A stretch of 61,255 bases of DNA, counting the filler, from Alphaproteobacteria bacterium (lineage in GTDB: Bacteria > Pseudomonadota > Alphaproteobacteria > Caedimonadales > UBA9215): the NCBI GenBank assembly GCA_024280495.1. It is 9 parts of 9 records of this genome, joined end to end, with 100 filler letters (N's around TTAATTAATTAA, not from the genome) between each part and the next. Parts side by side here need not be neighbours in the genome. Positions count along the whole stretch, not along the records: positions 13,283 to 29,221 come from JAJRPZ010000067.1; 8 more parts are not named here. One strand, 5' to 3'. Each line of letters begins with the position of its first letter. Position 1 is the first letter of the stretch. Position numbers: made by a program. Positions 18,001-24,000 of this stretch are shown in pieces.

Positions 18001-21000
18001 CTGGTTCTTTGCGTTTTGAAGGCAGATTTAATGAAGGAAAGCTTCTTTCATTTTCCCCTCTTTCTTATGAAGATAAAAATGGATGGAAAATTCTAATATC
18101 TGGGTTTAAAGATAAAAATAACAGCCCTAAAACAATTGTTGATGGTTTTGATGTGCGGGCAAAACACCATGGTAAACCCATTCTAAATTTGACGTTCTGG
18201 CCCAATAAATACGGCTCTCAGGTTCTGGATATTCAAGGTGAAGATGTAAATTTAAAAACATATTTTGAGACAGATTTGTCTAACTCTGGCCTGGTGAGTG
18301 AGAAAATTAAATCTATGCCATTGCATTTGGTATTTAAAGCAAAAAGAATTACTGTAAATTCACCACTGGGGATTGTAAATCCTTACCTTGATGTGCATTT
18401 TGAAAATAGTGCCATTAAGCTCTTGCAGTTTCGAGGACAAACAGAAGAAGGCGTTGGGGGAAATCGTGATATTTTTGCAGAAATTCATAATCAGGTAACT
18501 GGACCAAATAAAGGTATGCGCAAATTGCGTCTACAAACGGAACAGGGGGGGGCTTTTCTGAGGGCACTTGATATTTTTAAAAATATTAGAGGTGGACAGC
18601 TTAAAATAATTGCTTTTAATGACCAGCGTTTTCAGAAAAAAACATGGATCGGTAAGGTTCGTATGCGTTCTTTTTCTTTGTTAGATACACCTTTTATAAC
18701 AAGGCTTTTGGCATTAATTCCTTCGGGAGGAGCGGAACTAACACCTGGAAACGGTATTAAAATGGCGACTTTAAAAATGCGTTTTGGTATTTCAGATACT
18801 TATTTTGAAATCCATGGGTTGCGTGCCTATGGAATGGCATTGGGTGTGAATTTATCTGGGTTCATCGAAAAGGCACGCTCTAAATCTATCAATATTAAAG
18901 GATCAATTATTCCAATGAGGGGACTCAATACGGCTATCTCTCATATTCCTATAGTGGGACCTTTGATCACAGGTGGCCAAAATGGAAGCCTTTTTTCCGT
19001 TGCCTTTGGTGTTGGTGGGACAACAACAAACCCAAAAATTACCTCCAATCCCTTAAGTGTTTTAACCCCTGGTATTTTGAAACATTTTTTTGGAGGAAAA
19101 GAAAACAAATTCACCATTTCCGATAAATGGTTAAATGAAAAAGATGGTGGAAAAAGAGATGTATTCGATGAAGAATTTGATAATTTCTAGATCTGTTTAA
19201 TGAGTTTTTGGATCACAAAAAGGCTTAATAAAGTTAGAATAAAACCACTCAGACCAAGGGCTATGATGCCTTGGTTTTTTGCGGCATTTTCAAGTGTCCA
19301 TATGGATATAATAAAAAGTGGGAGGATAAGGGGTGATATGACAATAAGGCCAATTCCAACTGTCTGTGTCCCCCTTAATGAAAGAGCTTCAACCGTTAGT
19401 AATAAAGACGTTAAGGGGACGACAAGACTTATAAAAATGAGAAAATTTCTTATGCTCATAACATCAAAAAAACCCCAAAGGACTGTTGCCGATATAATCC
19501 AAGGCAGACTGTATAAAACTATTTTTGATACAATATAAGGTGTTATATTTTTTGCTCTTCCAATGATCTCATCCAAAAAACCAGAATTTTCATCCTCTAA
19601 GATAAGGTGTTTGGATCCATTGGATAAGCCCATGAAGAGAAATATAATAAAAAGAGAAAAGGATTGTGTCGTCTTTTGAGTCTCCATATATCCTGCACTT
19701 AAAAATGAAAATAAAAAAAGAACTAGGGCAAAAATAAAGAGAGGAACAAGAATAACGTGGGTTGAAGCCCATAAGTGTCTCGTATCTTTCCTTAGAAAAA
19801 GAAAAAATAAATGCAAAAATGATAGACCATTTTTCCTTATGGAGGTCATAGTGCAACCCTTTTTTGAAAAACTGGAAAATGGTTTAACTTTTTGAAAACC
19901 ATGCGCGTTTTGAGGTTTTTTGAAAAAAGAGACTCAATTTCAAAATGGTGATGAACAAGACAGCAAATTCCCCCGTTGTTTAGGTGGTTTTCAATATGGC
20001 TCCAAAGTAGCTTGCAATTCTTTGCATCCAAAAAAGAAAAAGGTTCGTCTAAAAGCCATAAATCAGAATGAGCCAAAGAGAGCCGTGCAAGATTAAGGCG
20101 TTGCTGCTGACCTTCTGATAATTTTTTAAAAGGGACATCCTTGAGGAAAGTGAGATACCAATCCTTCAATAACATTTTTAAGGTAAAATTGTTTTTTTTA
20201 CCATAATAAGATTGCCAAAATTGAAGATTTTTCAGGACTGTTCTTTCTGCTTCAAAAGGGCGCTTTGATTGAATAAAGATACTGTTTTGTGACTGTTTTA
20301 TTTGCCCTGAAAAATCCTGGGAAAGACCTTGTATAGAACGCAAAAGAGTTGTTTTTCCAATGCCATTTTCACCAGAAATTAAAAGGCATTGCCCTGAATT
20401 TACCGTTAAGGATAGGGGTTGAAAAAGAGGGATACCTTCAATGTGACAGGAGGTATCTTTAAAAACTAATGAAGTGGGGAAAGTATTTTTTTGCATAGGG
20501 CTAGTTTAATGCAAATTCACATAAGAGTCTCATTAAAACATCATGTTGGTTTTGTCTTGTTTTTAAGTCGAACTTCACCCCAGGTGATGACCATGACGCT
20601 GGTGATAATAAAAAGAACGGCAAAGATAAGCCCTTCATTTTTGGGGAACTCGCCAAAAAGGGTAAACCCTAAAATACTTGTCAATATCAGACGCGTAAAA
20701 CCAAAGGGGGTGAGAAAAAGAACTTCGGCGTGGGCATAAGCTTTTGCCGTTGCATAATGGGCAAGGCACCCGCTTCCCCCAAGGGCAATCATCATAAGGA
20801 GCTGGTTATTGGTGGGCGTAACCCAGGTTGATGCCGCGTATATGGCACTCACAGGGATCATAAAAAAAAGTAAATAGAGGGCTAAAAGTTGTGGTTTTTC
20901 ACCAGCTTTTCCAAGCTTTCTAACGGAAAGTTTTGCCACCACAAAAAGGGCGGCTGAAATAAGAGGAAGAAAAACAACCAATTGGTCCATATCAAGCTGG

Positions 21001-24000
21001 CCTGAGGTTAAAGCTTTATCAGGTCGGGTCAGGACAAAGGCTCCAACCATACCAAGAAATATCCCCAATAATCGCAGCTTACCAACGTGTTCACTCAGAT
21101 AAAGTTTTGCCCCAATAACCGTGAAAATAGGCCCCGTAAACTGAAGAGCAACCACTTGGGTCATGGGCATCTTTGAGAAGGCTGTATAAAGGCTGATAAT
21201 GCCAAAAACAGCTGCAATAATGCGGATTCCATGGATCAGGGGGTGCTGTGTTTTAAGGCTGCTAAATCCATTTTTTAAGACAAAAGGTAGCATGATAAGG
21301 CACCCAAAAATATTCTGAAAAAGAACCACGACACCAGGAGTCAGAGGGTTTTCAATACCGCCTGCGCCACCAGTAAGGTAACGTACAAAGGAATTTACCA
21401 AAGCAAAGCCAACACAGGCCGTTAATTTCCAGAAAATTCCACAGATGTTCTCTCGAACAGAATTACGTTGCCAAAAAGAAGTGGGGGCTCGAGGAGGGGT
21501 GCCAAGTGAGTCTGGGATCTCTACCATAGAAGGATTTACAGTCATTAATCACCTTTTTAAGAAATATAAAGTTAAGATTTTTTTTTGTCCCAAATAGGAT
21601 CTTTCAATTTTTCTAGGAGAAGTTTATGTTGAGCAATTTCATCATCGGTGAGTTTAAATTCACGGGCTTTGCGCAATTGGCGTTCTATGACTGTTGTAAG
21701 ATCTTTTTTCTTAAGGTCTCGTTCCTTTGATGAGGATGATATAAAATCAGGTTGAGCCCCCCCAATAAGCTCAAGGTAAACTTCCGCTAAAAGTTCAGAG
21801 TCCAAAAGAGCCCCGTGCAAAGTTCGGTTCGAGTTATCAATTTTAAAACGCTTACACAGAGCATCTAAACTTGCGGGGGATCCTGGAAATTTTTCACGGG
21901 CCATACGCAACGTATCAAGGGCTTGGGTGAAAGGAAGAGGCTTTCGATTTGCCCATTCTAATTCTGCATTAAGAAATTTCATGTCAAAACGGGCGTTATG
22001 AATGATTAAACGATCTTTTTTGATGAACTCAAGGAAAGAATCAATGTGATCTTCAAAGGGGGGATGTTCTTTTAAAAATTCAGTGCTAAGACCATGAATA
22101 TTAAAGGCTTCTTCGGTCATATCACGCCTTGGATTTACATAAACGTGAAATTTTTCACCAGTGGCGATATGATTTTTAAGTTCGATACACCCAATTTCAA
22201 CAATTCGATGTCCGAGATTAGGGTCCAAGCCCGTTGTTTCAGTATCGAGGACAATTTCACGCATGAGTATCTTTCTGAAAAATAAAGGTTTCTTTCACCA
22301 TATCGGAAAATCCCCTTTATATTCAAGAAAATAGTGAAAAATTAAAGTTTTATAGGTGACTAGTTTTTTGTTTACACTAGGCGTAAGGGACGACGGCTAT
22401 ATTTATAGCCAAGGAGCGCAACAACAAAGTGTAAACGTAAAAATAATTAGCTATGCCTAACAATATGGATGGAAACTATAGGTTTCTTAGCAAGAATACC
22501 ATTGATAAACTTTTTAACGCTTTGTTCGAGTCTCTCTTGAAGGTAATCATCATCCTTTGGTTTTTTAGATGTGATCGTATTAACATCTTCTTGAACAATA
22601 TATTGTAAATCAGATAATAGAGACCCTTTTTGGCCAATATCAGGTAACCCCACGATAGTGATATCAATGGGGATTAATACATTGTTTTTTTTATTAAAAA
22701 CAAGGGTTATAAAAATAGCACCGTTACTAGCAAGTTTCTCACGATTTTTAATATGTTCCCCTTTAACATGAACGATGGCAGTGCCATCAACGGCAAGTCG
22801 ACCATGCTCAACGGTCCCTTCGGCAACGGGCCCCCCTTTAATGGATAAATTAATAAGCATGCCATTGCGAGGTGCGAGAGCACGGGGAATGCCATGCGCT
22901 AAACCAAAGGCCATATGTTCACGTAGATGCGCGCGTTCACCATGAACAGGAATCAAAATTTGAGGTTTGACCCAATCGTACATATCTTTTAATTCATCTT
23001 GATTGGGATGACCTGATACATGGGTCATATCATCATAATCTGTAATAACATTAATACCTTGGTCCAAAAGACTTTCTTGGCCCTGATGAATGGCCGCTTC
23101 ATTCCCAGGAATTTCCCGTGAAGAATAAATGACGGTGTCACCAGCTTCTAACTTAATTTTTGGGTGGGTACCATTTGCAATACGCGAAAGAGCCGCACGG
23201 GATTCTCCCTGTGACCCCGTACACACAAGCAAAACCTTATGGCGATCTAGGTTGCGAAATTGAGCATCCTTTAAGAAGTTTTTATTGGATTGAAAATATC
23301 CACTGTGCACAGCTGCATCGGACATATTCCAGAGGGAACGGCCAGCGAGAACTATTTTGCGTCCAGTTTCTTCGGCGGCTTCAAGACAGGTTTGTAATCT
23401 CGCAACATTACTGGCAAAACATGCAACAATAACACGTTTTTTCTGACCTTTGATAAGCTCAATAAGGCTATCTTTGACTTCTCCCTCGGATCCTGAGCGG
23501 CCTTCAGAGAAAATATTGGTGGAATCACAAATAAGCGCCAAGGGCTTTTCATTACCAATACTTTTCAATAAGTCAACATCAGTGGCTGCTCCAATACGAG
23601 GGTCTGTATCAAGCTTCCAGTCCCCTGTATGAACAATAACACCAGCTGGTGTTGATATACGTAAAGCATTGGCTTCGGGAATAGAGTGGGTAATGGGAAT
23701 AAAAGTCACATCAAAATCACCAAGTATTACATCGTCTCCTGGATCAATTTCGATGATTTGTGCTTGGGAAAGAAGGCCTGCTTCGCGGAGTTTACCACGA
23801 ATTAAAAAAGCCGTAAAAGGCGTTGCGTAAATAGGACAACGCAGCAAATGCCAAATATAAGGGATAGCGCCAATATGATCTTCGTGACCGTGTGTGATAA
23901 CAAGGCCCAAAAGATCTTTTTTACGCTCTTCGATAAAAGAAGGATCTGGCATAATTACATCCATACCAAGGGTGCGTTCGAAGGAAACGCCAAGGTCAAC

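Follow-up and report, generated by a model that had tools for sequence, protein, structure and literature searches.

Gene order around dnaQ

The window is the whole stretch of DNA that was analysed, 61,255 nucleotides in length, and its positions 13283-29221 are contig G000:C92. The relevant features are the following (positions in the window):

15209..15308, no strand: second copy of the MITE-like repeat, 92% identical (G000:C92:1927-2026)
20541..21545, minus strand: EamA/DMT transporter (Pfam EamA) of 334 aa, which follows dnaQ in this genus
21572..22264, minus strand: dnaQ (DNA polymerase III epsilon), 230 aa
22265..22446, no strand: gap of 182 bases from dnaQ start to rnj stop; in relatives the 3' end of coaE is found here
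22297..22326, minus strand: sigma-70-like promoter motif, two hexamers with an 18-base spacer, 64-68 bases before dnaQ
22351..22454, no strand: MITE-like repeat of about 104 bases with 27-base terminal inverted arms (22352-22378 and 22428-22454)
22447..24105, minus strand: rnj (RNase J), 552 aa
25951..27237, minus strand: MFS transporter, whose paralog family is order-wide rather than family-specific

The family was represented by six genomes (G000-G005, with G000 the genome of this stretch), and compared with 17 genomes of the other three families of the order. In these relatives, coaE and dnaQ are neighbors, as the first-pass annotation had reported for a smaller set of loci. The coaE gene lies directly before dnaQ in 16/17 genomes, and in the remaining one (G016) the two genes are found at the ends of different contigs. 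The gene order is hemE<>coaE-dnaQ><secB in families f3 and f4, and rpe-coaE-dnaQ><secB in f2. In G000, dnaQ is instead flanked by rnj and the EamA gene. The upstream gene differs in other members of the genus, and is sdhC in G005.

A profile of the C-terminal part of CoaE scores 87-112 bits on the upstream DNA of six relatives, but below 0 bits in all six family genomes, none of which has a scoring coaE remnant within 240 bases ahead of dnaQ. The earlier description of a gene lost from its slot upstream of dnaQ therefore has to be abandoned, because both neighbors of dnaQ have changed, and a local deletion scar is ruled out by a rearranged locus without remnant. The rnj gene has, like dnaQ, lost a CoA-gene neighbor: in the two relatives examined (loci L044 and L045) it comes after nuoN-birA-coaX, while in G000 the gene next after birA is icd.

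The gap before dnaQ does hold a MITE-like repeat, as annotated, although the gap is 182 rather than 183 bases long. The element resembles a MITE in being short, non-coding, bounded by terminal inverted repeats and present in many similar copies. There are 30 matches in G000, including 18 copies with alignments of 85 bases or more at 75-100%, and most copies have TA at both ends; the G004 loci contain one copy at 83%. The last 8 bases of the repeat overlap the end of rnj and provide its stop codon. The sigma-70-like motif is present before dnaQ in 5/5 genomes of this genus and 0/5 others (G005 and four coaE-bearing genomes), in a comparison that is no independent test as the pattern was written with these sequences in view. 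It is probably a promoter that dnaQ acquired after losing the coaE gene in front of it.

Absence of CoaE and of the other CoA genes

CoaE (PF01121) was detected in 0/6 family genomes versus 17/17 genomes of the other families, where matches score at E 1e-33 or better. A profile built from the CoaE sequences of 14 relatives and run against the family up to E 10 retrieved P-loop matches only (the shikimate-kinase homologue discussed below, TsaE and an ABC ATPase). Local hmmsearch and tblastn for CoaE in G000 and in all 1,191,161 bases of G005 (100% complete, 4 contigs) likewise gave nothing beyond P-loop noise, in agreement with the reported lack of a tblastn trace in G000. The archaeal GTP-dependent dephospho-CoA kinase (PF04019) was found in none of the five family genomes searched (all but G004), again as stated before. 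The absence of CoaE is genuine, and it is broader than the first-pass annotation had stated.

CoaD is above cut-off in 0/6 family genomes versus 17/17 genomes of the other families, and type III pantothenate kinase (PanK) in 0/6 versus 14/17. Using the CoaX and CoaD sequences of relatives as tblastn queries against G000 and G005, no match was obtained at E 0.1. Type I PanK was looked for by a single motif in G000, and the upstream enzymes (PanK, CoaBC, CoaD) were scored absent. Weak matches to the CoaD model were traced to other proteins, namely a nucleotidyltransferase of 154 aa whose ortholog (49%) occurs in the CoaD-keeping genome G012, an HldE-type domain in G005 and a NadD-like protein in G002.

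The previous statement that there are no pan or coa genes holds for CoaD and type III PanK, but not strictly for CoaBC. A full-length coaBC is present in G004 (1/23 order genomes), on a foreign-looking 10.4-kb contig that also carries an N-glycosylase/DNA lyase, a racemase and a radical SAM gene. No ortholog on this contig is common to G000 or G005, with the sole match at ferredoxin level. The gene is probably foreign and was set aside from the family gene set. PanK III, CoaD and CoaE without CoaBC make up the gene set of 14/17 relatives; all three are absent in the family, which has dropped the entire salvage route rather than a single gene.

There is hardly any chance that these absences are artefacts, with coaE left unassembled or diverged past detection. 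It is true that the G000 assembly (99 contigs) reaches only 89% completeness and can be shown to miss acpS, and that two large genomes in our sample of the class also have no CoaE match. However, three unlinked genes are gone from all six genomes, four of which are 93-100% complete (G004 is 85% complete), and G005 was searched whole. Undetectable divergence is unlikely, because other family proteins are 50-80% identical to those of relatives, whose CoaE sequences score as strongly as given above. This explanation is already largely refuted.

CoA-dependent metabolism is kept

Thiolase, FadB, FadD, GltA, AccD and FabD are found in both G000 and G005. CoA users in G000 are PDH, succinyl-CoA ligase, beta-oxidation and FabD, and those in the complete G005 are beta-oxidation, citrate synthase, AccD, FabD and AcpS. 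PDH, the TCA cycle, beta-oxidation and fatty-acid synthesis had all been ascribed to the lineage. Beta-oxidation and FabD are indeed common to G000 and G005, but PDH and a full TCA cycle are confined to this genus, as G005 is without PDH (E2), SucCD and Icd. The PDH E2 subunit is above cut-off in G000 and G002, and SucD is present in 5/6 family genomes. AcpS is also present in 5/6, the missing one being G000, where acpS would sit just beyond the start of C76; the neighboring rluD is absent as well.

Some CoA enzymes weakly accept dephospho-CoA. Use of imported dephospho-CoA as the cofactor, without its 3'-phosphate, would account for the absence of any kinase, but seems very improbable to us in light of the alignments. 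No column of AcpS separates the family from the other members of the order, and the N-terminal CoA-binding loop of SucD is unchanged. In SucD and in SucC, family-specific changes amount to 4 columns each, and they are either conservative or far from this loop.

Candidate replacement kinases

Kinases were enumerated as P-loop kinases, and no unassigned one is common to all six family genomes. In the complete G005, a motif search for small P-loop kinases yields Adk, Cmk, Tmk, Gmk, TsaE and two AAA_28 proteins found only in this genome. Members of this genus have a FlaR-like NMP-type kinase (G000:C29:5993-6685; 5/5 genomes) and an orphan shikimate-kinase homologue. A zeta-toxin-like ATPase (G000:C21) was rejected, as it occurs in only 1/5 other family genomes.

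Dephospho-CoA could still be imported, much as in Rickettsia, and receive its 3'-phosphate from a non-homologous or moonlighting enzyme. This might be the FlaR-like kinase or the shikimate-kinase homologue in this genus, an AAA_28 protein in G005, or Adk, Cmk, Tmk or Gmk in all genomes. Non-homologous dephospho-CoA kinases exist (archaeal PF04019 has matches in 4 control genomes), and the FlaR-like kinase is consistently retained within the genus. The shikimate-kinase homologue is retained although motifs for the remaining enzymes of the shikimate pathway have no match in G000, and in the alignment it shows neither the arginine nor the glycine-rich motif of E. coli shikimate kinase.

Nevertheless, we regard this scenario as unlikely. 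None of the three orphans (FlaR-like kinase, shikimate-kinase homologue, AAA_28) occurs in both genera, so that two independent replacements would be needed. The orphans align to the CoaE profile at the P-loop only (28, 55 and 37 columns), which adenylate kinase equals. Relatives of the shikimate-kinase homologue at 60-62% carry the names Nucleicultrix and Caedimonas, so the gene is older than the loss of CoaE. The AAA_28 proteins of G005 have hydrophobic, signal-like N-terminal stretches and resemble phage clusters.

Probable uptake of the finished cofactor

The following scheme draws on gene absences, presences and order, and from these we infer intracellular life, uptake, the form taken up and the carrier. 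The ancestor of the order, having no CoaBC, would have made no CoA from pantothenate, but would have salvaged a late precursor via type III PanK, CoaD and CoaE. In the family ancestor, these three genes would then have disappeared and the coaE-dnaQ and coaX-rnj junctions would have been rearranged, while CoA-dependent metabolism stayed, which would point to uptake of the finished, 3'-phosphorylated cofactor. This could be free CoA, or acetyl- or acyl-CoA releasing CoA in use, from a eukaryotic host cell from which nucleotides and NAD would already be taken as well. Slow uptake would be sufficient, because CoA is recycled.

Judging from gene absence, the family likely imports intact CoA or an acyl-CoA. 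The case for intact-CoA import, made before on the absence of coaE, is strengthened by the loss of CoaD and type III PanK and by the lack of a common P-loop kinase. The former wording that CoA "must" be imported goes too far, as a genus-specific or moonlighting kinase may exist. A position "one step beyond Rickettsia" fits the end state but not the path, as the ancestor of the order had PanK, CoaD and CoaE, so that three steps were lost.

Life inside a eukaryotic host cell is probable for the family. NAD synthase was found in 0/5 order genomes tested, nucleotide transporters of the NTT family number 2-3 per family genome, and a shared protein has Nucleicultrix, Caedimonas and Caedibacter as its named relatives. 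NTTs can carry NAD+, as reported for PamNTT4 of Protochlamydia (PMC1951785). That protein illustrates that the NTT family is able to import an adenine-containing cofactor whole. CoA transport by an NTT was not found in the literature searched.

No transporter tracks the loss of CoaE. Every candidate family tested (NTT, AmpG family, the EamA of this stretch and two MFS families) is also present in CoaE-keeping relatives. The second, non-canonical NTT clade (trees from a quick method and FastTree; G000:C16:4076-5701, and near 458-459 kb on G005:C4) is found in 5/6 family genomes, the exception being the incomplete G004, and also in f2 and f4, which keep CoaE. This clade replaces four conserved positions, one of them a glutamate that the two solved ATP/ADP carriers share. 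Accelerated change specific to the family was rejected, with 13 clade-specific changes versus 13 in the f2 control, and a contig scan with the family's second NTT gave four distant NTTs and nothing else. AmpG-family genes are present in 23/23 order genomes, and their products resemble the human acetyl-CoA transporter, with a match to its structure at E 7e-11.

The EamA protein has a 53% ortholog in G005 and 43-47% orthologs in 4/4 CoaE-keeping genomes tested. It was rejected as a family-specific gain for CoA import, as was the MFS protein at 25951..27237, both MFS families being order-wide. Mitochondrial carriers (PF00153) were absent among 32 G005 proteins scanned with Pfam. The carrier is probably an inherited one of broad specificity rather than a new gene, and the best candidates would be the second NTT and two proteins of the AmpG/acetyl-CoA-transporter family. 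A gene gained specifically in the family may also be compatible with the data.

Comparison with known systems

CoaE is usually regarded as the sole CoA gene retained by host-dependent bacteria, and some tiny insect symbionts are said to be without CoA genes. Rickettsia and Holospora are described in two reports as salvaging dephospho-CoA with CoaE only (PMC5615194, PMC5911502). They resemble the family as host-dependent alphaproteobacteria that keep CoA-dependent enzymes, have lost the pathway and have no assigned importer. The upstream enzymes are absent in both cases, but Rickettsia and Holospora keep CoaE. Since the family ancestor would have had PanK and CoaD too, a lasting CoaE-only stage is not needed.

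The gene set of 14/17 relatives is that of the pantetheine shunt (PanK III, CoaD and CoaE without CoaBC), named for a Legionellales symbiont in a preprint (bioRxiv 10.64898/2026.04.11.717937). No type III PanK accepting pantetheine is known according to PMC8721197, so that pantetheine is a putative substrate in the relatives. The same text lists 8/62 mycoplasmas without any CoA gene, as in our family (G004 coaBC set aside), and proposes a specific CoA transporter. Those mycoplasmas are said to be without CoA metabolism and PDH; the family keeps extensive CoA-dependent metabolism, which makes the need for import firmer.

Symbionts without the CoA pathway are already known, at pathway level. Among protist endosymbionts, CoA biosynthesis is reported as "entirely" missing in Ca. 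Bodocaedibacter vickermanii (PMC8163844) and as missing in some Endomicrobiellum lineages (PMC11257099). As far as these texts go, coaE is not named and import of intact CoA is not concluded, and six supplement text files of PMC8163844 (figure supplements excluded) contain none of the four terms searched for. The accessible portions of PMC2936742, PMC4285135, PMC8204192, PMC5905368, PMC9992710 and PMC7969357 contain no statement on coaE loss. The literature searched, mostly without subscription papers, reports no coaE loss in this family and names no bacterial carrier for CoA or dephospho-CoA.

Distribution across the class

Loss of CoaE had been implied to be unique to the family, which is not the case. 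In the class sample, CoaE is missing from 17/40 genomes with a size up to 1.7 Mb versus 2/120 larger ones, and it was not found in 16 families besides this one. In a separate order (G029, G041), CoaE and CoaD are both missing and FabD is kept. This distribution suggests that the CoaE-less state has arisen many times, making the family less special and the question broader. Uptake of intact CoA might thus be a recurrent, unrecognized end state of reduced Alphaproteobacteria, carried out here by the second NTT or an AmpG-family protein, a tentative extension that we consider rather doubtful. If true, this protein would be the first CoA importer of bacteria, and would hint at the dephospho-CoA carrier still missing in Rickettsia. 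A family that respires and keeps beta-oxidation and fatty-acid synthesis without a CoA gene would imply that bacteria can import the whole cofactor, and the family together with its CoaE-keeping sisters offers a short carrier list with matched controls.

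Loss of the CoA salvage route in family UBA9215

Window positions 13283-29221 are contig C92 of G000, a 1.14 Mb genome in 99 contigs with a completeness of 89%. The order sample comprised 23 genomes from four families, six of them from UBA9215 (f1; G000-G004 belong to one genus, and G005, with 4 contigs and 100% completeness, to another). For one protein that f1 shares, the relatives at 60-62% bear the names of Nucleicultrix, Caedimonas and Caedibacter, which are protist endosymbionts. The family name appears in a table of phyllosphere MAGs, with nothing further in the accessible part of that source (PMC13327642).

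A CoaE (PF01121) match was found in none of the six f1 genomes, versus 17/17 others in the order. A profile built from the CoaE of 14 relatives recovered only P-loops from f1 up to E 10, local searches of G000 and of all 1,191,161 bases of G005 found no coaE, and the archaeal kinase (PF04019) was not found in the 5 f1 genomes searched. The coaE loss described in the first-pass annotation is confirmed with stronger support, and it is extremely improbable that the absence is an artefact. The loss is larger than the single gene originally reported, as CoaD above cut-off (0/6 versus 17/17 in the rest of the order) and type III PanK (0/6 versus 14/17) are gone as well. Since most relatives keep these three enzymes, salvage by type III PanK, CoaD and CoaE was already in place in the ancestor of the order, and f1 lost all of it.

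CoaBC was matched in only one of the 23 genomes, G004, which has 4% contamination. Its contig (G004:C132, locus L208; 10,360 bases) has genes without orthologs in G000 or G005, and also carries N-glycosylase/DNA lyase, racemase and radical SAM genes. It is probably a binning contaminant, and we treated this coaBC as putatively foreign.

Three relatives (G008, a single contig, G017 and G019) have CoaD and CoaE and lack type III PanK, which implies an intermediate state with 4'-phosphopantetheine uptake.

Rearrangement of the dnaQ locus

According to gene coordinates, coaE adjoins dnaQ in 16 of the 17 other-family genomes (the 17th is interrupted by contig ends), with hemE or rpe ahead of coaE and secB after dnaQ. 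In the window, dnaQ is flanked by rnj and an EamA gene. Upstream of dnaQ lies a membrane-protein gene in G001, G002 and G004, a different one in G003, and sdhC in G005, which retains secB. For a coaE remnant, the 240 bases before dnaQ gave no score in any f1 genome, versus 87-112 bits in six relatives. With both dnaQ neighbours changed and no remnant, the clean deletion from this slot proposed earlier is not borne out.

The gap between dnaQ and rnj measures 182 bases. It contains a promoter-like motif common to the five genomes of the genus (the pattern was derived from these same sequences) and the MITE noted previously, which does qualify as a MITE-like repeat:

22351-22454, MITE-like repeat (about 104 bases; G000 carries 18 long copies)

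The repeat end overlaps the rnj stop, so that 22447-22454 give RNase J its last codons and stop codon. Because the dnaQ loci of the other five f1 genomes lack the repeat, it would be younger than the coaE loss and unrelated to it. In both relatives examined (n=2), rnj comes after coaX; therefore dnaQ and rnj, on either side of the gap, have each lost a neighbour from the CoA pathway, by coincidence or not. The position immediately upstream of rnj, taken by coaX in relatives, is occupied here by a 223-aa gene (24184-24855) that has an acidic tail and matches nothing in Pfam.

Retained CoA-dependent metabolism

G000 has PDH E2, SucD and FabD, as well as thiolase, FadB, FadD, citrate synthase and AccD (the latter five via 63-68% G005 orthologs matching NCBIfam models). 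AcpS is found in 5/6 f1 genomes; in G000 it is expected just before the start of contig C76, where the neighbour rluD is missing as well. The earlier list of CoA users (PDH, TCA cycle, beta-oxidation, fatty-acid synthesis) stands for this genus and not for G005, where tblastn (whole genome, L098, L146-L207) did not find PDH (E2 included), SucCD, SucB or Icd. G005 keeps beta-oxidation, acetoacetate-CoA ligase, citrate synthase, AccD, FabD and AcpS, and thus still needs free CoA. Together with retained SDH and a short-chain fatty acid transporter, this gene set suggests that G005 lives on fatty acids and ketone bodies from its host.

Search for a replacement kinase

Three P-loop proteins of G000 are without assignment: a FlaR-like kinase (4/4 other genomes of the genus, absent from G005), a zeta-toxin-like ATPase (1/5 other f1 genomes) and an orphan shikimate-kinase homologue (also in G001, G003 and G004, absent from G005). 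A whole-genome motif scan of G005 for small P-loop kinases returned Adk, Cmk, Tmk, Gmk, TsaE and two AAA_28 proteins, both absent from G000. Against the CoaE profile, the FlaR-like protein and one AAA_28 protein matched at the P-loop only, as did Adk. Given these genus-limited kinases and P-loop-only alignments, the G000 and G005 inventories reveal no P-loop replacement across f1. Import of dephospho-CoA followed by phosphorylation by another kinase is therefore unlikely, as no unassigned P-loop kinase is common to G000 and G005, although separate replacements per genus, a moonlighting kinase or a kinase of another fold are possible. Direct use of dephospho-CoA as cofactor is very unlikely: no AcpS column is specific to f1, and SucD keeps its N-terminal loop unaltered, judged by the presumed 3'-phosphate contacts.

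From the absence of the CoA genes, now more firmly established, we infer that f1 probably imports intact CoA, as first suggested, or acyl-CoA.

The shikimate-kinase homologue lies between xerD and accA (L038:1468-1998 in G001; split by the C1/C38 contig ends in G000) and has 60-62% relatives in Nucleicultrix and Caedimonas. Compared with E. coli AroK, the substrate-side arginine is missing and the glycine motif changed, and no other shikimate-pathway motifs matched in G000. It is probably a repurposed kinase. The AAA_28 paralogs (L169:13921-14754, L207:2786-3718) have hydrophobic signal-like N-termini, are closest to phage clusters in Atlas, and are possibly secreted nucleotide-binding proteins.

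Missing CoaE matches in other lineages

The f1 loss is one instance of a recurrent pattern. Among 160 other genomes of the class (at least 95% complete, evenly sampled), 19 had no CoaE match: 17/40 at up to 1.7 Mb (16 families; three single contigs) versus 2/120 larger ones, tallied by hand from rounded sizes. G054, which has a CoaE match, entered the denominators only. Among genomes without a CoaE match, CoA users and diverged CoaE were looked at only in G029 and G041 (the two genomes of another order; 99% and 96% complete); both are without CoaE and CoaD and keep FabD, and G029 has PDH E2.

Among published systems, Rickettsia and Holospora keep CoaE (PMC5615194, PMC5911502), unlike f1. CoA genes are wholly missing from 8 of 62 mycoplasmas, for which a CoA transporter has been proposed (PMC8721197), but these also lack CoA metabolism, whereas f1 retains CoA users. 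For Bodocaedibacter (PMC8163844) and some Endomicrobiellum (PMC11257099), absence of CoA biosynthesis is stated at pathway level. Our literature searches turned up neither a description of coaE loss in this group that leaves CoA metabolism in place nor a named bacterial importer of CoA.

Candidate carriers

The family poses a directly testable transporter question. Among the transporter families tested in f1, no CoA carrier was found. The AmpG family, to which the acetyl-CoA transporter of humans is related, occurs in 23/23 order genomes, and 4/4 CoaE-keeping genomes tested contain orthologs or close paralogs of the window EamA and of two MFS families. Each f1 genome has 2-3 nucleotide transporters (NTTs). 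One NTT clade with a non-canonical site, present in 5/6 f1 genomes, groups with paralogs from the CoaE-keeping families f2 and f4 (support 100; FastTree, midpoint root), with 13 clade-specific changes in f1 and 13 in f2. Any import of CoA would be likely to run through an inherited carrier; a gene gained by f1 is possible.

NAD is an obvious rival cargo for the NTTs, because NAD synthase was missing from all five order genomes tested (G000, G002, G005, G008, G013), and NAD must also be imported. The non-canonical clade is not represented in G013. Two canonical-type copies (G000:C35:13200-14774 and G000:C45:7495-9060) both occur in 5/5 genomes of the genus, in whose ancestor this type was duplicated.
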